Shown: piece after piece, positions 1 through 14,922 of the stretch | Numbering within the stretch: position 1 is the first letter of the stretch | How the letters are laid out: each line of letters opens with the position of its first letter | Assembly: GCA_012060505.1 (NCBI GenBank) | Contig: GCA_012060505.1_3027.2 | Source of the DNA: a phage | DNA: 15,812 bases | Reading direction: 5' to 3' (one strand) | Translations under genes and position numbers: made by a program | Notes under the pieces: generated by a model | The model's input: only the letters and a program-made list of their open reading frames with translations | Told to the model about the DNA's origin: nothing | Databases searched by the model: none

Positions 1-129
1 TGAACGAGTTAAAGCAGATTTAAGCACGCTGTATCTATCAGGAAATTTACCGTGTTCATTATAATACGCTATTGCTAATTCACGGACTGCCTTTTCAGCA
101 GCCTCCATATATTCTTTACGCTTGGTCAT
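1..129 (-). CDS. Hypothetical protein, N-terminal 43 aa only (gene continues beyond window start)
   Basis: Reverse-complement ATG at 127-129 opens frame [43 protein letters not shown], which runs off the window; sits 2 nt after the TAA stop of the upstream gene. Confidence 0.45.
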
Positions 130-131
130 TT

Positions 132-521
132 TTAATCCAAAATATTATTAGGCATTGGTTGAACACTCACAAGTTCTTTAAAGAACTCAGTAGAGTCAGG
201 CAATTTAACCATTTCCGGAGCATGCTTACTGAATTTATGTTTACAATGACGGCATTTATATTCAAGCTCTGGTTTACGCCAGTTAATCAATTGAACTTGT
301 TCAGTACCGCATTCAGGGCAATTAGGAACGTTTTTAGAAGCTCTTTCACGTCGTTCAACCATAGCCATAATAGCATCCCATGATGGAGGTTTAAAATCTA
401 AATCGTCGCAGCCGTGAATCTTTCCACGCATTTTCATATCATCTTCCTCACCAGCCATAATAATTTTAATTAAACTAGAATTACTTGAAGCTGCAATGTC
501 TTCTAATAAACGCTTTTTCAT
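132..521 (-). CDS. Hypothetical 129-aa protein with probable zinc ribbon (CPECG...CRHCKH)
   Basis: ORF track; ATG at 519-521 preceded by GAGGT; ATGA stop-start overlap with upstream gene; paired Cys motifs. Confidence 0.7.
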
Positions 522-1447
522 TTCAATACCTCAATAGCATTACGTAAACCATTTGCTTTTGCATTAAGAGCTTTTAACAATTTGGTGTGTTCTGCAATTT
601 GGGCTTCAACTTCAATCAAACGAGCATTGAGATATTCGCGTTCTTCACTCAGATTATCAGCCTTTTCTGCTTTAGGTTCTTTTACAACTTGCTTATATGT
701 ATTAGGGTTCTTCAGTTTAATTAGAATGCGTGAACTGTACAGCATTGAACCATTATCTTCGGTTTCGTCATACATTTCCACTACGTCCATCATCTCCACC
801 ATCGTGCAGAGTTTATAAGACAACGAACGAATAATTTTGTTGTACTTATTAATTTCTCTAGCTGTCATGGTGCCGAGATTACGTGAGTAATAATAAGGAA
901 CCTGGATATTAATTAATACTGATGAACCACCTGGCTTGTGTGTTACTTCATCAGCAATAACCCAATCCTTAACATGAACTGTATTTGTACGGTCATCGCC
1001 CGCGGTAAATAGTTTACGAGCATGCTTAAAAAGCATATTCACTTGGTCATTGAATTGACAAGCGAATTTATCAGCAAATTTAGTTTCGGGAATGGTAGAT
1101 AACCAATCAGCCAAATGGGTCTTTTTAACATCGTTAACAATAGTAAATTCAACCAAATCGGTTATAGATGTCTCAGATTTAATGAAGCTCGGCTTCATAA
1201 AGTTTTTAATGTTATCACTAGCTACAGTAGAAGATAACAGACGAGAACGTTTAAACCATTGAAGTAAATTGCCTAACGAATAAGAATAAGCGTTTTGAGT
1301 ATCTTTACAAATATGGTTTTCCCATCCAATATAGTCTAAAAAATCACGAAGAATATTATTGATTACTGCTCTGTGCCCGATCTGATAATTACGGTGTTTA
1401 GTAATAAGACTGTCAAAATAATCAATATAATGTTTACGAGTTTTCAT
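518..1447 (-). CDS. Hypothetical 309-aa protein, N-terminus MKTRK, C-terminal coiled coil
   Basis: ORF track; ATG at 1445-1447; heptad-like C-terminus [42 protein letters not shown]. Confidence 0.75.
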   Translation of the reverse strand: MKTRKHYIDYFDSLITKHRNYQIGHRAVINNILRDFLDYIGWENHICKDTQNAYSYSLGNLLQWFKRSRLLSSTVASDNIKNFMKPSFIKSETSITDLVEFTIVNDVKKTHLADWLSTIPETKFADKFACQFNDQVNMLFKHARKLFTAGDDRTNTVHVKDWVIADEVTHKPGGSSVLINIQVPYYYSRNLGTMTAREINKYNKIIRSLSYKLCTMVEMMDVVEMYDETEDNGSMLYSSRILIKLKNPNTYKQVVKEPKAEKADNLSEEREYLNARLIEVEAQIAEHTKLLKALNAKANGLRNAIEVLK

Positions 1448-1469
1448 GTTCTTCTCACTTGGTTAATGA

Positions 1470-1499
1470 TTTATACTCCGAGCCATCCTTGGCTTTAAA
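1470..1499 (-). promoter_or_regulatory. Weak promoter-like element (TATAAAT-type box) with hairpin AGCCA-tcct-TGGCT
   Basis: Minus strand reads ggagTATAAATcat upstream of the 518-1447 start; short inverted repeat at 1481-1494; no good -35. Confidence 0.3.
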
Positions 1500-2501
1500 T
1501 TACTTAATTAACTGTAAAGCTTGTTCAAGACGATCAAGACGATTAACAGATTCTTCCCAAATCCTTTTAGCTTGCTCATATTCTTTCTGTGCTTTATTAG
1601 AAATTTCTAGAACTTCTTTATAAGCTTTTTCTAGTGCAATAACTTCTGGACGAATTTCTACCGATTCAGGTGAATCATCAAGATTATCCATTAGTTCCTC
1701 AAGGGTAGTTTCTTCTTTAGGAGTATTCACAATTTCTTCGCATTTTTGTTGGTAAATTTCTTTATCAGTTAGTGAATAAGCACATTTCACTTCACGAAGA
1801 CTAATTACAATTTTATATCCTTCCCAACCACCAATATTTTTGAAAGGATATGTATGAATACTTTTTACAGTTTCCATACAATCCAAAGCCGTCTCTAATT
1901 GATGAGTTATAGTGCTAGCAATTGAGAAAAATTTATTAATATTCTTTTGGTTAGCTTCTGGTGTAAAAAATTCATAATTCACAAAAATAGCTACTTTATT
2001 TTTATCAAGCTCATATTCTTTTACGATAATCATATCAGAAGCCAAAGGATGAATTTGACGATAATCGCCATAACATAATTTAGAAGCTGATTTTAGAATT
2101 TTTCCTTTAAAAAGTCTGAAATTACTAATCCAACGACGAGTAAAAATATTCTTAGGGTCTTCTTTGATATTAAGATGATAAGAATTAACATCACCGAACC
2201 AATTGTATCCTATTACACCTTTAGTTCGTTTAATTTCTTTCCCAAAATTACCAAGAATATCCCGATTAACTAAATATGAAAGAAGACGAGACCCTTTAAA
2301 GATTATCTTAATATCATCTTTATCTACACGGCTAGAAATTTCACGAACTTCATGAATAAATTTACTGGAAGAAACAATACTTGCATCAATACTGCTGAGC
2401 CATTGATTGATAATAGAAAGAACAGCATTCTGACTAGACATGGGTTTAACTTTATCATCAATAACCCTATTGAATGATTTGATATATTCGTTACGAGTCA
2501 T
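1500..2501 (-). CDS. Hypothetical 334-aa protein, N-terminus MTRNEY, C-terminal coiled coil
   Basis: ORF track frame; start moved to ATG 2499-2501 (SD GAGGAG upstream) because the longer track start overlaps the promoter at 2530-2559. Confidence 0.75.
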   Translation of the reverse strand: MTRNEYIKSFNRVIDDKVKPMSSQNAVLSIINQWLSSIDASIVSSSKFIHEVREISSRVDKDDIKIIFKGSRLLSYLVNRDILGNFGKEIKRTKGVIGYNWFGDVNSYHLNIKEDPKNIFTRRWISNFRLFKGKILKSASKLCYGDYRQIHPLASDMIIVKEYELDKNKVAIFVNYEFFTPEANQKNINKFFSIASTITHQLETALDCMETVKSIHTYPFKNIGGWEGYKIVISLREVKCAYSLTDKEIYQQKCEEIVNTPKEETTLEELMDNLDDSPESVEIRPEVIALEKAYKEVLEISNKAQKEYEQAKRIWEESVNRLDRLEQALQLIK

Positions 2502-2529
2502 ATTAATCTCCTCAGTAGAAAGTAAGAAC

Positions 2530-2559
2530 ATTATACCACATCCTTGTGGCAAAGTAAAC
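2530..2559 (-). promoter_or_regulatory. T4-early-type sigma70 promoter
   Basis: Minus strand: GTTTAC - 18 nt - TATAAT with TGG immediately 5' of the -10 (extended -10); placed between the stop of gene 2559-3578 and the start of gene 1500-2501. Confidence 0.6.
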
Positions 2560-3578
2560 TAGTTCAGTGCATTTAATGCATTGTTCAGTTTAGAACGTTG
2601 CTTTGTCAGATTTTGAACCCTTGACTGAGCTTGTTCTAACGCCTTTTCAGCTTCTAGCACTTCATTGGTCGCTTTAACGAGTTCATCATCTACTGCCTTG
2701 ATAGACTTCTCAATCGCATCCGCGTGCCATTTTTCAACAGGTTTAAGACTCGGATTTTCAACAGGAAGAAAATTCACTTTATTGAATTTCCATGCATCAT
2801 TATTACCTGAACTATACATCCAAAATTTAGGATCGTTTGATAAGTAATTGGATAAATTTAAGTTATCTTGTACTTCCTGCTTTTTCTCTTGCGGGACTTC
2901 GTCCTTTCTCAAAAAATCGTATTTAAATGAAACGATCATATCAAGTTCATATGATGTTGTATCTAACTTAAATCGTTCAAAACGAGGTAAAATCTTAGAC
3001 TGAACAGCGGCAACAACATCCATATACTTAAATGCTTCTGTCAACTGTGATTTAAGGCATTCACAAATTGAAAGAGAATTTTTTGTATTAGGTTTAAAGC
3101 TAATTCGTGCAGTTCTATTATTTTCTTTTAATGGTCTTACTTCCATCTGAAGAGTATAACCATCAAATTTCAGGTTCTTTAAGTTAATGTCAGAACCTTT
3201 TAATCGACTAGCTGTCGACAAAATTTGCTTTAACTGTTTACGGAATAGAGCAATAAATCTCCATTCAATACGATAATGATTGGGATTGAAAAATCCAGAT
3301 GATAAATCAACCTTACTCTGACCAACACCTTGAACAAATAGAGGATTTTTATAATCAATAGTTTTACAGAAATCGGTGAGCTGCTCACGAGCAGTCATTT
3401 GTGTAATATATCCCGCTTTACTAAAATGACGTAACCATTCACTGCTATTCATATATTTAAAGTGAATGGAACTATTAACTCTATCAGGGTCTAAATTATT
3501 TTGGCACAAAAATGTCATAACATTACGGGTATAGCTGGCATTACGAACCATATCTTCAATTTGAGAACGAGTTTTCAT
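2559..3578 (-). CDS. Hypothetical 339-aa protein, N-terminus MKTRS, C-terminal coiled coil
   Basis: ORF track; ATG 3576-3578 with SD AAGGAA; C-terminus LVKATNEVLEAEKALEQAQSRVQNLTKQRSKLNNALNALN. Confidence 0.75.
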   Translation of the reverse strand: MKTRSQIEDMVRNASYTRNVMTFLCQNNLDPDRVNSSIHFKYMNSSEWLRHFSKAGYITQMTAREQLTDFCKTIDYKNPLFVQGVGQSKVDLSSGFFNPNHYRIEWRFIALFRKQLKQILSTASRLKGSDINLKNLKFDGYTLQMEVRPLKENNRTARISFKPNTKNSLSICECLKSQLTEAFKYMDVVAAVQSKILPRFERFKLDTTSYELDMIVSFKYDFLRKDEVPQEKKQEVQDNLNLSNYLSNDPKFWMYSSGNNDAWKFNKVNFLPVENPSLKPVEKWHADAIEKSIKAVDDELVKATNEVLEAEKALEQAQSRVQNLTKQRSKLNNALNALN

Positions 3579-3586
3579 AGTGTTCC

Positions 3587-4474
3587 TTAAGATTTAAGTA
3601 AATCAACAATTTTAATTAACTTTTCACGCTCAGATTTAGCTTTACTACTCAATCCAGATAGTCTAAAGATTTCATCGTCATATTGTTGAATAGAAATATT
3701 CAGCTCTTCAATTTGCTTATTAAAATAATCAATTTGCTCAGAATGTTTTTCGTTACTACGAACTGGTACAGGTTTTGTAGGCAATTTAGTTGAACTGGAT
3801 TCATCCGGGCGATAAATTAAAATACAACTTGAACCAATTGGACATTTTGCACCAGATGAATATTCTAATGTTCCAGATTCTTTTAAAACTTCAAAAGCTA
3901 AACAGAGATGATGACCCATATTGACATAATCAGTAGAGCGAGCTCTGATGTAATAATCATCTCCACGAGTACTAAATTTAAAGCATTTAAGGTCTTCTGT
4001 ATTATTGGTCTTAAAAATCATTTGTTTATCTAGACCTTTAGCTAATCGAGCGCCTAATGCTAATAATCGTCGTTGATTTTCCCACAAATCTGCAATCATT
4101 TGGTCAAATGATAATTTTGGCATTAGTCGACCATAAAGGTCATATCCTTTATTATAATTACGAAGAATTTCACTCGCATTAATACGAGACAATGCTCCAA
4201 TTTTATTAAGGGCTTTCATGATGCGATTAGATAAACTCATTCCAGATCCGTTTGTTCGCTGTAAATGTTTTTCTAATCCAAATCCAATATCAACTTTAAA
4301 TTTATCTAAAATTTCAGCATGAACATCTCTGTCAATAACATTCAAATCCAAAGTTGGGTTAAATCTATGAAAAAATTTATCTGGCTCTCCACGACGAAGT
4401 ACAGTCCATTCATTCAATTTTTTATTAACTAAAGATTTAATTACTGTATTGACATTATTAATTACTACTGACAT
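3587..4474 (-). CDS. Hypothetical 295-aa protein with C-terminal coiled coil
   Basis: Track ORF begins at a TTG; internal ATG at 4472-4474 has a strong SD (GAGGAAAAT) and sits 7 nt after the upstream gene stop, so it is preferred. Confidence 0.7.
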   Translation of the reverse strand: MSVVINNVNTVIKSLVNKKLNEWTVLRRGEPDKFFHRFNPTLDLNVIDRDVHAEILDKFKVDIGFGLEKHLQRTNGSGMSLSNRIMKALNKIGALSRINASEILRNYNKGYDLYGRLMPKLSFDQMIADLWENQRRLLALGARLAKGLDKQMIFKTNNTEDLKCFKFSTRGDDYYIRARSTDYVNMGHHLCLAFEVLKESGTLEYSSGAKCPIGSSCILIYRPDESSSTKLPTKPVPVRSNEKHSEQIDYFNKQIEELNISIQQYDDEIFRLSGLSSKAKSEREKLIKIVDLLKS

Positions 4475-4481
4475 ATTTTCC

Positions 4482-4883
4482 TCACTCAATTTTACCAATT
4501 ATGCGGAATAAGATTGAACAGACTATATAAGTACCACATATAGATTGAACTAATGCCATTCCAAAGAACCAAACAATATTATCAAACCATGTCTGTTTTA
4601 CGTCGAAAGGACGTAAACTTACAGTAATATTATCACCTTTTTCTATTGACGAATACATCTCTGGTGAAATATATTCGCTAAATCTATAACCGTCTTTGAG
4701 TTCATATACAGCAATAAATGATAAACTAGACCCCTTTCCTTGAGTTCCTGTAATGGTATTAACTACAGTAACATCATAATCTTTATAATGCATATAATCA
4801 TTAATTGCGTAATAACCATATGCAATTACTATACATAAACAACATATCAATAAATTCAATCTTTTAATTATCAACTGTTTCAT
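4482..4883 (-). CDS. Predicted membrane protein, 133 aa, hydrophobic segments at both ends
   Basis: ORF track; ATG 4881-4883; hydrophobic stretches LNLLICCLCIVIAYGYY and IVWFFGMALVQSICGTYIVCSILF. Confidence 0.7.
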   Translation of the reverse strand: MKQLIIKRLNLLICCLCIVIAYGYYAINDYMHYKDYDVTVVNTITGTQGKGSSLSFIAVYELKDGYRFSEYISPEMYSSIEKGDNITVSLRPFDVKQTWFDNIVWFFGMALVQSICGTYIVCSILFRIIGKIE

Positions 4884-4912
4884 AATAATCTCAATTAAAA
4901 GGGCTTAGAACC

Positions 4913-4941
4913 ATTATACCATCCTTGGTATAAAGCGGTTA
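4913..4941 (-). promoter_or_regulatory. Promoter-like element with TGG-TATAAT extended -10 but degenerate -35
   Basis: Minus strand reads ccaaggatggTATAATgg upstream of the 4482-4883 start; -35 position does not match GTTTAC. Confidence 0.35.
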
Positions 4942-5466
4942 TGCGAGTACCGTCTTTAACCGTTCTTCAAATTTCCGAAGAGTGTTCTGGCGTTCAGCTC
5001 TTTGCTTTTTGTAAGTTTCAATACGCTCTGAAATGAGAGTGTATCGTTCATTTACTGATTCTTTCATAAAATCAGGAATTTCACGAGAAGCTTTAATCTC
5101 ATCAAATTTATCAATAACAGCTTGCTCTTCAGCAATTAAGTTATCATACATTAAAATATCTTTCTTGATGAACTCAATATCTTCTTGAGTTACACGAGAT
5201 AATTTAGATGCTTTATCCTTTTTGTACTGTTCGTTAGTATCACGAGACCAGTGTAATGTACGATTTTTATTCGTATTTTTGTAAATTTCTACAATACCAA
5301 TTTCATCAATAATAACGATCCAATTCCAACGGGATTTGTAAATTTGTCCTCCATCAACAGTGATTTCACCTCCGATTGAGATGTCATTAAAGAACTTGCT
5401 TTGTGCTTCAGATTTAAATTTACCATCGTTGTAATTTACCAGGTTGAAAATATCTTTAGCATTCAT
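4939..5466 (-). CDS. Hypothetical 175-aa protein, C-terminal coiled coil
   Basis: ORF track frame; start moved to ATG 5464-5466 (SD GGAGG) because the longer track ORF runs through the promoter at 5495-5524. Confidence 0.7.
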   Translation of the reverse strand: MNAKDIFNLVNYNDGKFKSEAQSKFFNDISIGGEITVDGGQIYKSRWNWIVIIDEIGIVEIYKNTNKNRTLHWSRDTNEQYKKDKASKLSRVTQEDIEFIKKDILMYDNLIAEEQAVIDKFDEIKASREIPDFMKESVNERYTLISERIETYKKQRAERQNTLRKFEERLKTVLA

Positions 5467-5494
5467 TTTCTGTTCCTCCGTAGTTGATAGTTGT

Positions 5495-5524
5495 ATAGTA
5501 CCACAGAGGAACAGTCTTGTAAAC
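5495..5524 (-). promoter_or_regulatory. T4-early-type sigma70 promoter
   Basis: Minus strand: GTTTAC - 18 nt - TACTAT, TGG 5' of the -10; shares a 22-nt identical core (5482-5503) with the promoter at 6934-6963. Confidence 0.6.
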
Positions 5525-5526
5525 AA

Positions 5527-5829
5527 CTAAAAGAAACTTCTTTCACAATTTTTTCCACTGAACCATGCGCTGACCGCTTTCTTAGTCTCAGGAGCAGTGT
5601 TATCCATAAACCATTCAAAGGCAGCCTTTTTATGATTCTGGAGGGCTTCTCGGGCTTTAATCTGCTCACGGTCTATTAACACTAACATATGAGCCTTTCT
5701 TGTCACCAAGGGCTTCTTATGATTCTTGGAGTATTCCCAGTCATTTGTCCAACGCATTGTCGTTGCGAACTGATGAACCGCGTCTTTAATTTTAGTTTCA
5801 TAAATTTCACGAGCCTTTGAGTATAACAT
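5527..5829 (-). CDS. Hypothetical 100-aa protein
   Basis: ORF track frame; start taken at ATG 5827-5829, which follows SD GGAGG by 5 nt. Confidence 0.6.
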   Translation of the reverse strand: MLYSKAREIYETKIKDAVHQFATTMRWTNDWEYSKNHKKPLVTRKAHMLVLIDREQIKAREALQNHKKAAFEWFMDNTAPETKKAVSAWFSGKNCERSFF

Positions 5830-5930
5830 CACTACCTCCATTCACCAGTTTAATTCTAGTCATCTTTTTGATGGCAGTCCATATAATCTATTTCTGAACT
5901 GCCTTTTTGTCATAGAAGTCCTCTTATGAA

Positions 5931-6899
5931 TTATTTCAGAAGAGTAACCTCAGCGATTTCTTCCCAACCGTTTTTGTCGGTCATAATAAAGTCAGCAAGA
6001 TAAAGAGCAGTACGCAGTGAAACATTGCGTAAACGATTAACATTGACTTTCATCCATGATAATGCTTTATAAGTTTCTTCATCAGAAAGACCGCGCTTTT
6101 GCATCATGTCAGTTGAAAGAATAACATCTTCAACCCTGACCATAATTTCTTCATTAGTGTGAACACCCAAATCCAAATAAACTGAGCGGGACACTAATGC
6201 TTGTAAATGTGGAGCAAGTTTAGTACCACGGTCTAATTCGCGGTCAATATCAACGTTTGTGATAAAAACAATCGTTCCTTTAAATTCAAACTCACGCTCA
6301 ATGCCTTTTTCTTCTAAGTAAGAAGATGCAGTGCTCCAGCAGACTTTACGGGTCTCTCCAGTGTCCAGAGCAGCTTTTAGAAGATTAAGAATGTCCATAT
6401 CAGAGAAAACATCCACATCATCAATCAAAAGGACAGAATTCTCTTCACGATTATTCCAAAGCTGTTCATAAAGACCAATACCAGAGATTTTACCATTAAT
6501 GCTTTTATACTCAATGTATCCAATATCATTTGCTTTATTTAAAGCTTTATCTAAAGAATACGTTTTACCAATACCTGCTGCTCCCGAGATAATTAATGAA
6601 CGAATGTTTCCGTTAATAATACCATTCGTCATCATTCCCATAACATTAAATCTTTTATTAATGCGGGTTTTCATATCTTCATACGATTCTTTAACTTCTT
6701 CAACTTTTACACCATCATATGAAATGTCTGATTTGTAAACCCAAACACCGCGACGTTTACCGTCAATTTCAACAAAAACTTTACCATCTCCTTGTGCATC
6801 TACCGGAGCATTATCTGGGAACCATTCGCCTAAGAGCTCAAAAGTTCCAGAGATTTCTTTACCGAAGTAGATACCCTTATTGATAGTTACAGTTTTCAT
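5931..6899 (-). CDS. AAA+/P-loop ATPase-like protein, 322 aa
   Basis: Walker A SGAAGIGKTY, Walker B-like VLLIDDVD, sensor-like IVFITN; start ATG 6897-6899 with SD GGAGAAT, just downstream of the promoter at 6934-6963. Confidence 0.8.
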   Translation of the reverse strand: MKTVTINKGIYFGKEISGTFELLGEWFPDNAPVDAQGDGKVFVEIDGKRRGVWVYKSDISYDGVKVEEVKESYEDMKTRINKRFNVMGMMTNGIINGNIRSLIISGAAGIGKTYSLDKALNKANDIGYIEYKSINGKISGIGLYEQLWNNREENSVLLIDDVDVFSDMDILNLLKAALDTGETRKVCWSTASSYLEEKGIEREFEFKGTIVFITNVDIDRELDRGTKLAPHLQALVSRSVYLDLGVHTNEEIMVRVEDVILSTDMMQKRGLSDEETYKALSWMKVNVNRLRNVSLRTALYLADFIMTDKNGWEEIAEVTLLK

Positions 6900-6933
6900 T
6901 TTATTCTCCAAATCCGTATCAGTTGATAGTTGT

Positions 6934-6963
6934 ATAGTACCATAAAGCTTTATGCTTGTAAAC
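6934..6963 (-). promoter_or_regulatory. T4-early-type sigma70 promoter
   Basis: Minus strand: GTTTAC - 18 nt - TACTAT with TGG extended -10; sits immediately downstream of the terminator at 6986-7013. Confidence 0.6.
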
Positions 6964-6985
6964 AATTTTGTGAAAAAATTTTTGA

Positions 6986-7013
6986 AATAAAAAAAGGGAG
7001 CCCGAAGGCTCCC
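6986..7013 (-). terminator. Intrinsic terminator, 7-bp GC stem with UUCG loop and U-run
   Basis: Minus strand reads GGGAGCC-ttcg-GGCTCCC followed by TTTTTTTATTT, directly after the TGA of gene 7016-8029. Confidence 0.8.
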
Positions 7014-7015
7014 TA

Positions 7016-8029
7016 TCATTTATAATAACTTCGGTGGTTTTCAAGATAGACCTTCTCAAGGAAGTCATCCCAGAAACCCATGTCTACTTTTTGCTGCATA
7101 CCGTTCTTAGAAGCTTCAATAGATGCTGCTTCTACTTGATCGACCACATCTTCCAAAAACTCTTGAACTGTTTTAAATGGATGTTTACCCAACTTCACGT
7201 CGAGAATAAATGGAGCATCTTGAAGTGGATAAACCAAGTCACCAGTTTTGTAAATTTCCAATAGTTGAAGTCCACCACGGCAAGCATGGCTCAGAGCTTT
7301 CCAGTCAATACCTTCATTGGCTTCGGCCTTACGAGCACGTTCACCGTATTCGGCATCAAGTTTATTCAAAGACTGCTTAAGCTCAATAAGAGAAAGCGTT
7401 GTCTGATATTTACGACCCAACACAGTGTAGAACGTTTGTGGACCGGTTTTCTCATGATTATGGAATACCCATTCACAAAACTCGTTTTCAGGGAGTCGGT
7501 GTTTGATATCTTCTACCTTAGTTCGGCGTAAACGATCTGGAATTCCCTCTTGGTAATCAACCCACTGGTCAGGGATTTGATTAACTACTTTCAATACATC
7601 ACGTAATGCGGCCAAACGAGAACCCTTGACACCGTATTTAGAAGCTTGCTTGCGAACATATCCTAAATAGGATTTCATGTTAGTCGTATAAAAACGAGAA
7701 CGATTGTCTTGAATAAACTTCCATACATCAGGCAAATCAGATTTAACTACCAGTTCAAGTGGAGTGTGGAGCATATCCAATGCTACGGTTTCACCATCTG
7801 CTGCTAATTTAAAGAAATATTTAAGACTGTATAGTTCATGGTCAATATCATCTTTGGTGTTTTTAGATGATGTGTTGTTAGTGTTTTTACTCATATGCTC
7901 TTTGACATTTCCGATAAGAATATCGCGAGCAGGAGGAACAAAGATTTCTTTAAAATCTACATCAGATTCTGGAGTAGAAGTTCCATAAAGATGACTACCA
8001 AAATAGCTTTTCATTACTGTTTTCATCAT
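7016..8029 (-). CDS. Pol-beta-superfamily nucleotidyltransferase-fold protein, 337 aa
   Basis: N-terminal motif GSHLYGTSTPESDVDF (G[SG]-x9-13-D-x-D) plus downstream acidic ALD; ATG 8027-8029 overlaps the upstream stop as ATGA. Confidence 0.75.
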   Translation of the reverse strand: MMKTVMKSYFGSHLYGTSTPESDVDFKEIFVPPARDILIGNVKEHMSKNTNNTSSKNTKDDIDHELYSLKYFFKLAADGETVALDMLHTPLELVVKSDLPDVWKFIQDNRSRFYTTNMKSYLGYVRKQASKYGVKGSRLAALRDVLKVVNQIPDQWVDYQEGIPDRLRRTKVEDIKHRLPENEFCEWVFHNHEKTGPQTFYTVLGRKYQTTLSLIELKQSLNKLDAEYGERARKAEANEGIDWKALSHACRGGLQLLEIYKTGDLVYPLQDAPFILDVKLGKHPFKTVQEFLEDVVDQVEAASIEASKNGMQQKVDMGFWDDFLEKVYLENHRSYYK

Positions 8030-9851: not shown

Positions 9852-9879
9852 TCTCTTCTCCTTGACAGTTGACAAGATT

Positions 9880-9909
9880 ACTATACCATAACCTTGCCAA
9901 CTTGTAAAC
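9880..9909 (-). promoter_or_regulatory. T4-early-type sigma70 promoter
   Basis: Minus strand: GTTTAC - 18 nt - TATAGT with TGG extended -10. Confidence 0.6.
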
Positions 9910-9911
9910 CA

Positions 9912-10085
9912 TTAAATGGTGTTTTCAATAAAATTCTGAAGCTTTGTGTGAGCATCAACCATGATTTTCATTTCTTCTTTGGCGAAAGCTGTACCTCTTT
10001 CCCGAGAAGAACATTCATAGTCAGAAACTGCATTAGCATATTCTTCAATTAGTTTCATTAAAAACATCTGCTTTTCAGTTTTCAT
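9912..10085 (-). CDS. Small helical protein, 57 aa, paralog-family member (below ORF-track threshold)
   Basis: Manual translation MKTEKQMFLMKLIEEYANAVSDYECSSRERGTAFAKEEMKIMVDAHTKLQNFIENTI; SD AGGTGG; 11-nt overlap with upstream gene. Confidence 0.5.
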   Translation of the reverse strand: MKTEKQMFLMKLIEEYANAVSDYECSSRERGTAFAKEEMKIMVDAHTKLQNFIENTI

Positions 10086-10725: not shown

Positions 10726-10754
10726 AAAATGAAAAAAGTCTCCCGAAGGAGACT
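10726..10754 (-). terminator. Intrinsic terminator, 7-bp stem with UUCG loop and U-run
   Basis: Minus strand reads AGTCTCC-ttcg-GGAGACT followed by TTTTTTC, 5 nt after the stop of gene 10759-11145. Confidence 0.75.
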
Positions 10755-13856: not shown

Positions 13857-14394
13857 TTACTATTTCCAAAAGTTTATTATTTTTAAGGTAATTAGCCTTT
13901 TCTAGGACTTCAGAAGCATATTTAGAACCTGCTTTAACATTCCATCCCGAATTATAAGAGGATATTGCTTTTCTTATATCACCCTTATGTATATTTAACC
14001 AATAAGAAAGTTCAATGTACGCCCAGGAAGCTGAATTGGATCGTTTATTCAACATTCTTTTTATTTCAGCATCGGTCATATTATAACCAAGTTCCTTAAC
14101 TCTCGCTCGCATAGTAGGCAAATAATTTTGGAACATTCCGTAGGCGTGATGCTTTGGTTTAGATTTTAAATTAACTCCGCCAGAGCTTTCTTGCCATAAA
14201 ATGGCAGCCATTATATGACCTAATCCGCTCTTGTGGATATTTTTGTGTGTTTTATATTTTCCATCCTTAGAAAACTGTTCCCCGAATTGATACGCGTAAC
14301 GCATGTTATCGAGTTGGACATTACTGAAAGTATGCTCGGAGCTATGTGCCATCATTGAAATGGCCAATAGACCAGCGAGTAGTGCTTTTCTCAT
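13849..14394 (-). CDS. Secreted lytic-transglycosylase-like (SLT-domain) protein, 181 aa
   Basis: Signal peptide MRKALLAGLLAISMMAHS; catalytic-region pattern WQESSGG ... AYGMFQ typical of SLT domains; SD GAGGT. Confidence 0.75.
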   Translation of the reverse strand: MRKALLAGLLAISMMAHSSEHTFSNVQLDNMRYAYQFGEQFSKDGKYKTHKNIHKSGLGHIMAAILWQESSGGVNLKSKPKHHAYGMFQNYLPTMRARVKELGYNMTDAEIKRMLNKRSNSASWAYIELSYWLNIHKGDIRKAISSYNSGWNVKAGSKYASEVLEKANYLKNNKLLEIVND

Positions 14395-14401
14395 GCTTAC
14401 C

Positions 14402-14863
14402 TCATTGAGTTTTAATTACTGCTTTAGAAGCCTTTCCTGGTAAACGACGACTGTTGATAATTGCCATCCTGCATTGAAGTGACGGGTTTTTGAACTTCTC
14501 ATTAGGCTTACAAACCGTAAATCCAAGCCAAAGATTTCCATCTGTGATTTCTAAACGTCCAGGACGATATTCAACCCCATCAATAAAATCCTCGTCAATG
14601 TCAGGACGCGGAGGCATACTCAGGAATTCATTAACTTCTAAAACATGGTCTTTTATTTTATGGAATAATTCAAAAACATATGTCTCATCAATCTCCCGTT
14701 GAATTGCACGATCAAGAAGATGCTGAGAATACTTTAGATGAAACGATGAGACCCCTGCTGCTTTTGATACCTCACGAATCTCATTGTTAATTTGACGAAA
14801 CTCCGACTCAAAGTGACGACGAAGCTTATTTCGACGGATAAAAACTTCTGTGTTGATAGTCAT
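14402..14863 (-). CDS. regB: RegB-like sequence-specific endoribonuclease, 153 aa
   Basis: Length 153 aa and position next to vs with its own early promoter match T4 regB by recall; SD GAGGAGAAT. Confidence 0.7.
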   Translation of the reverse strand: MTINTEVFIRRNKLRRHFESEFRQINNEIREVSKAAGVSSFHLKYSQHLLDRAIQREIDETYVFELFHKIKDHVLEVNEFLSMPPRPDIDEDFIDGVEYRPGRLEITDGNLWLGFTVCKPNEKFKNPSLQCRMAIINSRRLPGKASKAVIKTQ

Positions 14864-14890
14864 GTTATTCTCCTCTTAACTGATAGAAAA

Positions 14891-14920
14891 ATTATACCAC
14901 AGTCAAGAGGAAAAGTAAAT
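14891..14920 (-). promoter_or_regulatory. T4-early-type sigma70 promoter upstream of regB
   Basis: Minus strand: ATTTAC - 18 nt - TATAAT with TGG extended -10. Confidence 0.6.
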
Positions 14921-14922
14921 AG

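Follow-up and report, generated by a model that had tools for sequence, protein, structure and literature searches.

A stem-loop element in promoter spacers of T4-like phages and its resemblance to CsrA-binding hairpins

Background

Early promoters of phage T4 follow the consensus GTTTAC(N14)gtggTAttaT, and its middle promoters carry, with its centre near -30, the MotA box (a/t)(a/t)(a/t)TGCTTtA; extended -10 elements (TGn/gtgg) are read by region 3 of sigma-70. The present study deals with a short repeated element related to such promoters, found three times in a 15,812-nucleotide stretch of phage DNA (NCBI GenBank assembly GCA_012060505.1, contig GCA_012060505.1_3027.2), hereafter the window. 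On the minus strand, the 10-mer CCAAGGATGG occurs twice, at sites 1 and 3, and its 14-mer form CCACAAGGATGTGG once, at site 2; both words and their positions (Table 1), taken from an earlier note on this DNA (the original prediction), proved correct on re-reading. As in T4 promoters, site 2 displays the exact early consensus, site 3 belongs to the middle promoter PnrdC.7, and the 3' arm of the hairpin formed by the element coincides with the extended -10. By contrast, the 5' half of the motif, CCA(CA)AGGA, lies outside both consensuses and is confined to a promoter sub-family, and site 1 is no promoter.

Repeated intergenic units composed of a promoter and a stem-loop, the promoter-stem-loop (PeSL) cassettes, are known from the hyperplastic region (Arbiol 2010; Comeau 2014). 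They sit where genes have been gained, lost or exchanged, the genes lying between two copies are deleted when these recombine, and degraded copies exist; in all of this they are similar to the element described here. The same papers report such cassettes, degraded ones included, in the T4/PST pair, and PeSL stem-loops act as terminators or attenuators. The difference lies in the architecture: the PeSL stem-loop is a terminator placed 5' of the -35, whereas the present one is short, has a fixed GGA loop and occupies the interval that separates the -10 from the -35 or MotA box.

At the RNA level, the consensus for CsrA/RsmA is CANGGAYG with the GGA in a stem-loop, and the optimum obtained for Escherichia coli CsrA by in vitro selection (SELEX) is RUACARGGAUGU, in which ACA and GGA show 100% conservation and the loop holds the GGA. 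In the model of repression, an upstream high-affinity hairpin and a low-affinity Shine-Dalgarno site, 10-63 nucleotides (nt) apart, are bridged by one dimer (PMC3856055). The hairpins of glgC-type leaders and of the CsrB/RsmZ repeats share with the present element the GGA loop, the short hairpin, the C-G closing pair and, in most contexts, a candidate second GGA at the Shine-Dalgarno; here, however, the candidate site is found in a lytic phage, 5' of the start site and in 4-5 copies per genome. In one transcriptome study the host small RNA CsrB was unexpectedly stabilised during T4 infection. A literature search retrieved no report linking T4 to CsrA sites, nor any cis-acting CsrA element in a lytic phage. 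A related principle operates in the T4 genes e, soc, 49 and I-TevI, where long upstream transcripts carry a 5' silencing element which is missing from transcripts begun at the embedded promoter. There, the promoter in the 5' arm is a late one and the hairpin sequesters the Shine-Dalgarno directly, whereas the hairpin described here is a local one that forms no pairs with the Shine-Dalgarno and would have to reach it through a protein, CsrA.

Results and discussion

The element and its location

The three copies are best explained as one stem-CAAGGAYG-stem element that belongs to a sub-family of T4-type promoter spacers and would be read by CsrA on read-through mRNA, an explanation whose chances, taken as a whole, fall just short of even. 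Its parts are not equally firm: the identity of the element as a promoter spacer is close to certain, and CsrA as its ligand, with a selected function, is a tentative and rather doubtful proposal suggested by sequence resemblance.

Bases 1-8000 of the window share 95-99% identity with hundreds of Tequatrovirus (T4-like) genomes, by which the stretch is identified as a segment of a T4-like coliphage. Alignment with the T4 record gives the gene order nrdC.2 through nrdC.11 and on to regB, all on the minus strand. Site 1 is located between nrdC.4 and nrdC.3, site 2 between nrdC.5 and nrdC.4, and site 3 between nrdC.8 and nrdC.7; the T4 counterparts of the three words lie at 49895-49904, 50950-50963 and 53338-53347, respectively. 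The T4 identity, the known T4 promoters and the match to CsrA sites were all missed by the original prediction, which had placed the element at promoters throughout; this holds for two of the three sites, site 1 being at no promoter.

Table 1. Positions in the window of the stem-loops, promoters and genes discussed
Feature	Position	Strand	Details
GGAGTATAAAT after site 1	1469-1479	minus	-10 box TATAAAT of the original prediction; promoter status unsupported
Site 1 stem-loop	1481-1494	minus	AGCCA-AGGA-TGGCT; holds the 10-mer at 1483-1492
nrdC.4 Shine-Dalgarno	2508-2513	minus	GAGGAG; GGA 32 nt 3' of the loop GGA; candidate second CsrA contact
nrdC.4 early promoter	2530-2559	minus	GTTTAC 2559-2554, 14-nt spacer, GTGG 2539-2536, TATAAT 2535-2530
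Site 2 stem-loop	2534-2551	minus	TGCCACA-AGGA-TGTGGTA; holds the 14-mer at 2536-2549 and ACAAGGATGT
nrdC.7	4482-4883	minus	
Middle promoter PnrdC.7	4906-4936	minus	GCTTTA 4936-4931, TGG 4921-4919, TATAAT 4918-4913
Site 3 stem-loop	4914-4933	minus	TTATACCA-AGGA-TGGTATAA; holds the 10-mer at 4919-4928 and the core CAAGGATG
regB	14402-14863	minus	

A hairpin with covarying stems and a fixed centre

An AGGA loop is present in all three predicted minimum-free-energy structures. The stem comprises 5 bp at site 1 (-5.8 kcal/mol, z = -2.2), 7 bp at site 2 (-8.2 kcal/mol, z = -3.5) and 7 bp on the folded 18-nt segment at site 3 (-5.5 kcal/mol, z = -3.0), where it reaches 8 bp in a perfect-complement scan of the T4 copy. 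The hairpins of the original prediction are therefore real, with arms longer than the CCA/TGG it described (5, 7 and 7-8 bp).

To measure pairing, 14 variants were aligned on the loop and seven stem pairs were scored against 500 column shuffles. Paired stem cells amounted to 87.8%, compared with 71.7% in the shuffles, none of which reached the observed value, and slid-partner controls gave 20-50%. Cells changed on both sides numbered 12 against 3.2 expected (0 of 500 shuffles). Both sides change at four stem pairs, and pair 9-21 is found in four forms (A-U, C-G, G-C and U-G). Within T4 alone, the outer pairs read TA/TA at site 3, AG/CT at site 1 and CC-AC/GT-GG at site 2. In RB69, the orthologue of site 3 (ACCC-AAGGAC-GGGT) retains the hairpin through two compensatory changes and has lost the TGn, and site 1 keeps its 5-bp stem outside any promoter register. 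The columns C-A-A-G-G-A-(U/C)-G are invariant. The AAGGA block occupies -20 to -16 in the 10-mer form and -22 to -18 in the 14-mer form, a 2-bp shift relative to the -10 box which argues against a fixed contact with the polymerase. Wobble pairs were uninformative as to the folding strand: G-U cells on the sense strand numbered three, as did the A/C cells that would be G-U on the antisense. Since the eight central bases are constant and the stems around them covary, the hairpin itself is probably under selection. Of the two possibilities raised in the original prediction, a protein-binding site or an RNA structure on read-through transcripts, it is the latter that is best supported, by this covariation and by the position of the hairpin upstream of the start sites.

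Promoter context of sites 2 and 3

Site 2 constitutes the spacer of a consensus T4 early promoter, an assignment based on the consensus fit, the annotation of a relative (SA21RB, from which the consensus was taken), a promoter scan and the T4 scan. The promoter reads GTTTAC-TTTGCCACAAGGAT-GTGG-TATAAT, an exact fit, and its GTTTAC overlaps the nrdC.5 stop codon TAG (2561-2559). No A/T-rich UP element was present at -40 to -60, where the coding 3' end of nrdC.5, AATGCACTGAACTA, is found instead and is not A-rich; in T4, coding sequence also precedes the rIIA.1 copy.

Site 3 lies in the spacer of the experimentally mapped middle promoter PnrdC.7. The start of this promoter has been mapped at T4 position 53325 (Hinton 2010, Table 1), which by the offset between T4 and the window corresponds to 4906, 7 nt past the -10 box, and SA21RB is annotated at this spot with a T4 middle promoter. 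The sequence of site 3 is identical in T4 (53333-52) and is conserved downstream of nrdC.8 in Dhakavirus and Gaprivervirus. The MotA-box region, aaCCGCTTTA (4940-4931), is a partial match in which GCTTTA agrees and C replaces the preceding T; the 12 nt separating GCTTTA from the TATAAT, itself preceded by TGG, fit the 11-13 bp rule. In gene-level RNA sequencing (RNA-seq), which is confounded by read-through, nrdC.7 RNA was 2.1-fold up in a motA-amber infection, and the rise in density from nrdC.8 to nrdC.7 was 2.05-fold in the wild type and 2.46-fold in motA-amber. Since this rise persists without MotA, PnrdC.7 (TGGTATAAT) may also fire as a MotA-independent extended -10 promoter. In the same kind of data (T4 RNA-seq, Table S1, PMC6024815), all genes from nrdC.2 to nrdC.10 rise 1.7- to 4-fold in motA-amber at 5 min.

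As sites 2 and 3 are spacers of T4 promoters, their 3' hairpin arm is an ordinary TGn/gtgg and doubles as the extended -10 element. The suggestion that the spacer element exceeds the needs of sigma-70 accordingly fails for the TGG/TGTGG half and stands for the 5' half, which neither the early nor the middle consensus includes. Moreover, the identity of the two sites extends past the -10 box as far as about +5 (TATAATG(G)TTCT).

Site 1, an out-of-register copy

The motif was said to lie directly 5' of a TATAAT or TATAAAT box at every copy. Sites 2 and 3 conform to this, and site 1 departs from it by the seven intervening bases CTCGGAG. A search for a promoter here found TATAAATC 7 nt past the motif, without a -35 at 16-18 nt, a MotA box at 11-13 nt or the late TATAAATA. 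In close relatives the TATAAAT reads TATAAAC or TACAAAT, and RNA-seq density does not rise across the site, with 12.7 reads/nt in nrdC.4 and 12.2 in nrdC.3. In one relative the closing pair is broken (TGGCT to TAGCT; L014). Site 1, which is in register with no promoter, is probably a relic.

A side observation at this site concerns the GGAG at 1476-1479 on the minus strand. The sequence GGAGUAUAAAU, which contains it, matches the strong RegB/S1 consensus GGAGRAYARAA at 9 of 11 positions; being 31 nt upstream of the nrdC.3 start codon, the GGAG is not a Shine-Dalgarno.

Frequency and distribution of the copies

Under a first-order Markov model, 0.011 copies of the 10-mer are expected in the window and 0.14 in the whole of T4, compared with two observed in each; for the 14-mer, T4 has two copies against 0.0004 expected. 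The repetition of a 10-mer is by itself unremarkable, the window holding 699 repeated 10-mers against 580 +/- 32 in Markov simulations. In its intergenic DNA (461 nt), however, just two blocks are repeated, the motif itself and a promoter core, TGTGGTATAATG. A covariance model derived from 11 variants recovered only the three known copies in the window, with scores of 23.7 bits (E = 0.0068) at site 1, 30.2 bits (E = 0.00016) at site 2 and 26.8 bits (E = 0.0012) at site 3, and in T4 four copies plus a variant at ndd.6. The model identified no more divergent copies in the window or in T4, the next matches having E > 1. A match with one mismatch at 14261-14270 was rejected as a copy, being within a coding region (E = 6), and Rfam gave no match at the gathering threshold anywhere in the window.

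All four T4 copies and the variant are intergenic and on the sense strand: early-promoter spacers hold two 14-mers and the variant, and a middle-promoter spacer holds one 10-mer. The genome-wide search proposed in the original prediction has thus returned copies in T4 above expectation and tied to promoters.

A raw search of IMG/VR with the 14-mer listed mostly chance or coding matches and became informative after filtering for promoter context. Among the matches listed, the 14-mer forms the spacer of GTTTAC-N4-CCACAAGGATGTGG-TAnnnT promoters in about 14 T4-like genomes, phages of Klebsiella (Jiaodavirus) and Serratia (Winklervirus) among them, with at least nine different genes downstream; it is also found in a distant T4-like contig, there with a TTGACA -35. 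Two T4-like genomes of 175-177 kb from IMG/VR carry the element in contexts of the MotA-box type, TAATTTGCTG-CCACAAGGATGTGG-TAGTTT (L063, 1035-1048) and TAATTTGCTT-CCACAAGGACGTGG-TAGTAT (L160), by which the spacer element appears common to early-type and middle-type promoters beyond T4. Tandem paralogy of nrdC.3, nrdC.4, nrdC.5 and nrdC.8 was considered as a source of the repeats and rejected, the best hit of an all-versus-all BLASTP of nrdC.2-nrdC.11 having E = 0.017.

Resemblance to CsrA sites and a possible mechanism

The core CAAGGATG matches CANGGAYG at 8 of 8 positions at all three sites. At site 2, ACAAGGATGT agrees with ACARGGAUGU at 10 of 10 positions and with the full SELEX consensus at 10 of 12, and the 14-mer holds ACAAGGAUGU, in which ACA and UGU are paired around the AGGA loop; sites 1 and 3 have CCA in place of the SELEX ACA. 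A GGA in the Shine-Dalgarno is found 27-39 nt 3' of the hairpin in 20 of 23 family contexts, such Shine-Dalgarnos being the rule in T4. In the window, the second GGA is 32 nt away at site 2 and 9 nt away at site 1, where it belongs to the GGAG that is not a Shine-Dalgarno, and site 3 has none. All three sites sit between co-oriented, contiguously expressed early genes without a strong terminator.

Because the hairpin lies wholly upstream of the start sites, it would be carried by read-through mRNA only. In the mechanism proposed, a transcript reading through from the upstream gene would carry the hairpin, CsrA would bind it there, and the second RNA-binding face of the protein would take the Shine-Dalgarno GGA 27-39 nt downstream. 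The translation of the downstream gene would then be repressed, or the stability of the RNA changed, on read-through transcripts alone, and transcripts begun at the embedded promoter would escape. The element itself recurs because promoter cassettes of the sub-family have spread and recombined among genes and genera. The broader claim, that T4-type enterobacterial phages built a high-affinity CsrA hairpin into promoter spacers, serving as a promoter in DNA and as a host-dependent translational insulator in RNA, is less likely than not. If the CsrA reading were true, it would link T4 to a global host post-transcriptional regulator so far outside T4 biology, provide a mechanism insulating each small gene of dense promoter cassettes from upstream transcription, and explain the conservation of the spacer across genera whose hosts (Escherichia, Klebsiella, Serratia and Yersinia) share CsrA.

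Several observations weigh against this account. The link to CsrA is a consensus match, and the CANGGAYG word is not enriched genome-wide in T4 (22 against 18.5 +/- 4.1 expected), nor clearly so when embedded in hairpins (5 against 2.2 +/- 1.6). The covariance model detected no further family members in T4, where AGGA-loop hairpins likewise show no enrichment beyond this promoter-spacer family. GGA is near-universal in T4-type Shine-Dalgarnos, so a second site does not discriminate, and the T4 nrdC.7 Shine-Dalgarno lacks GGA. The genes served are diverse and mostly non-essential, with no gene-specific logic visible, and some relatives show site 1 in decay. In this tiny family, whose members share descent, the covariation rests on perhaps five independent events. 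Several variants came from exact-match or core-anchored searches, so that ascertainment accounts in part for the invariance of the centre; the comparisons free of this bias are those of T4 with RB69, CHI14 and Jiaodavirus and those of the site 1 orthologues. Furthermore, templated correction of quasi-palindromes, known in T4, could give compensatory changes without selection.

Alternative explanations

The element could be promoter DNA only, the spacer and extended -10 of homologous cassettes copied by duplication, gene conversion or recombination of the PeSL type, with the palindrome and the likeness to CsrA sites incidental or templated by quasi-palindromes. This explanation, although it falls well short of even, remains substantial, and would make the hairpin an ordinary product of known T4 promoters and known cassette shuffling. 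It is favoured by the position of two of the three copies in bona fide promoters, by the TGG/TGTGG arm being a known TGn or gtgg, by the identity of sites 2 and 3 running on past the -10 box, and by the absence of genome-wide enrichment of the CsrA word; the sub-families of T4 early promoters with near-identical spacers, the promoters that mark exchanges of neighbouring genes, the deletion junction inside the 10-mer (all described below) and the intact and degraded PeSL cassettes reported in T4/PST point the same way. What it leaves unaccounted for is that the stems covary around a fixed centre, that the hairpin persists where TGn is lost (RB69) and where no promoter exists (site 1), and that its position shifts by 2 bp against the -10 box; other T4 early promoters are unrelated at these positions, so RNA polymerase does not require the motif. 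A DNA operator for a dimeric repressor or activator, of phage or host, acting on a subset of promoters is very improbable. Dyad symmetry in a spacer and the unexplained shut-off of T4 early promoters would suit it, but the arms differ within one genome (TACCA/TGGTA, AGCCA/TGGCT and CCACA/TGTGG) and stay complementary, which is the signature of base-pairing and not of half-site recognition; in addition, the conserved centre is asymmetric and site 1 is at no promoter. The protein-binding site of the original prediction, if understood as a symmetric DNA-binding protein, is unlikely on the same grounds. A CRP-type site was rejected, its half-site order and spacing being wrong.

That the hairpin acts on read-through RNA independently of any protein, whether by weak attenuation or pausing or by forming a barrier of the 3'-end or RNase E type between cistrons, is improbable. 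Terminator predictors do flag sites 2 and 3 (our own lenient scan and the SA21RB annotation), PeSL stem-loops provide a precedent for termination or attenuation, and at 5 min the density falls over both 14-mer sites, from 26.7 to 12.7 reads/nt between nrdC.5 and nrdC.4 and from 68 to 48.5 between gene 60 and rIIA.1. Gene-level densities are a crude measure, however, and they go up across site 3 and stay flat across site 1; the stems have 5-8 bp (-5.5 to -8.2 kcal/mol) without a U-tract, and a pure structure would not need the invariant CAAGGAYG loop and closing pair. An intrinsic terminator was rejected, the tails UAUAAUG... and CUCGGAG having no U-tract and being flagged by lenient scans only. 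Cleavage by the endoribonuclease RegB has some appeal, since the loop offers an unpaired GGA followed by a constrained U (GGAU), the enzyme cuts GGAG/U in intergenic regions of early genes, S1 is dispensable for the cutting of structured RNA that presents GGA in a loop with a paired fourth base, and the regB gene lies in the window. Yet GGAU needs a strict A-rich 3' context, absent after the loop, GGAC, found in RB69 and ndd.6, is the poorest substrate, and primer extension in wild type and regB mutant at the 30 intergenic T4 GGAU sites showed cleavage only at those upstream of 55.2 and motB.2 (Durand et al. 2006). Provided that the four T4 sites were among the 30 tested, RegB cleavage of the loop is contradicted by this in vivo mapping, and the probability left to it is minimal. 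Translation of a short open reading frame (ORF) from the ATG inside the motif was also discarded, with inconsistent lengths (2 to 9 codons) and no usable Shine-Dalgarno spacing.

Promoter sub-families, cassette exchange and deletions

Scanning the whole of T4 identified about 30 early promoters, whose spacers fall in part into several sub-families of near-identical sequence. One of these is the 14-mer, at rIIA.1 and nrdC.4, with the variant at ndd.6; the remaining early promoters have unrelated sequence at the same spacer positions. Other sub-families with identical or near-identical spacers are formed by the promoters at T4 positions 55383/146874, 123092/136335 and 27079/70695/166806. Among the sub-family spacers, AGCATAAAGCTTTA contains a perfect palindrome, CATAAAGCTTTATG, which ends at the TGn, and the others read AGTCCCTCGTGTTG and AGACTGTTCTTCC[A/G].

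In Dhakavirus and Gaprivervirus, the PnrdC.7 promoter is found near-unchanged after nrdC.8, the next gene is nrdC.6, and homology stops just past the start site, by which the promoter is recognised as a mosaic junction. Comparison of WG01, dhabil, TH44 and RB69 with window 4884-4960 showed that the last ~50 nt of nrdC.8 plus PnrdC.7 are ~96% identical between Tequatrovirus and Dhakavirus/Gaprivervirus, while the NrdC.8 proteins of these groups are merely 68-70% identical overall. In Dhakavirus, Gaprivervirus and RB69 the promoter drives nrdC.6, nrdC.7 being absent.

Two deletions are informative on the role of the motif in recombination. In TadeuszReichstein (MZ501106, 262-400), nrdC.8 is joined to nrdC.3 with the loss of ~3.4 kb from nrdC.7 to nrdC.4, and the hybrid region changes over from site 3 to site 1 exactly at CCAAGGATGG (4919-4928 joined to 1483-1492); such a deletion was present in 1 of ~500 related records. 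Elenatom (PP925844, 290-450; window ~1465-2490) has independently lost almost all of nrdC.4, leaving a remnant ORF of 29 codons. Its junction is an 8-bp microhomology, AAATCATT, between nrdC.4 codons 8-10 and the sequence after the TATAAAT of site 1. Because this deletion used homology unrelated to the motif, the latter is a convenient crossover point and not a special one.

Other hairpins at early promoters

The window also contains the classical PeSL arrangement, unlike the nested hairpins. Intrinsic terminators with UUCG tetraloops lie just upstream of early promoters at 6995-7014 (AGGGAGCCUUCGGGCUCCCU followed by U7) and 10737-10754 (AGUCUCCUUCGGGAGACU followed by U6), both on the minus strand.

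Strong hairpins, moreover, enclose many T4 early promoters: the spacer forms their 5' arm, and the initial transcribed region, in many cases with the Shine-Dalgarno, forms their 3' arm. In the regB promoter region (14858-14922, minus strand; T4 62796), the spacer UUUUCCUCUUGACUG pairs with CAGUUAAGAGGAGA (-21.6 kcal/mol, z = -5.3), and at 9858-9912 on the minus strand the -10 box lies between the arms of a 15-bp stem (-19 kcal/mol, z = -4.8). In a set of 31 early promoters of T4, minimum free energies average -10.8 kcal/mol, compared with -5.7 kcal/mol in random 48-mers, with a mean z of -2.6. These hairpins could form on read-through RNA only, which would extend to early promoters the late-promoter principle of e, soc, 49 and I-TevI.

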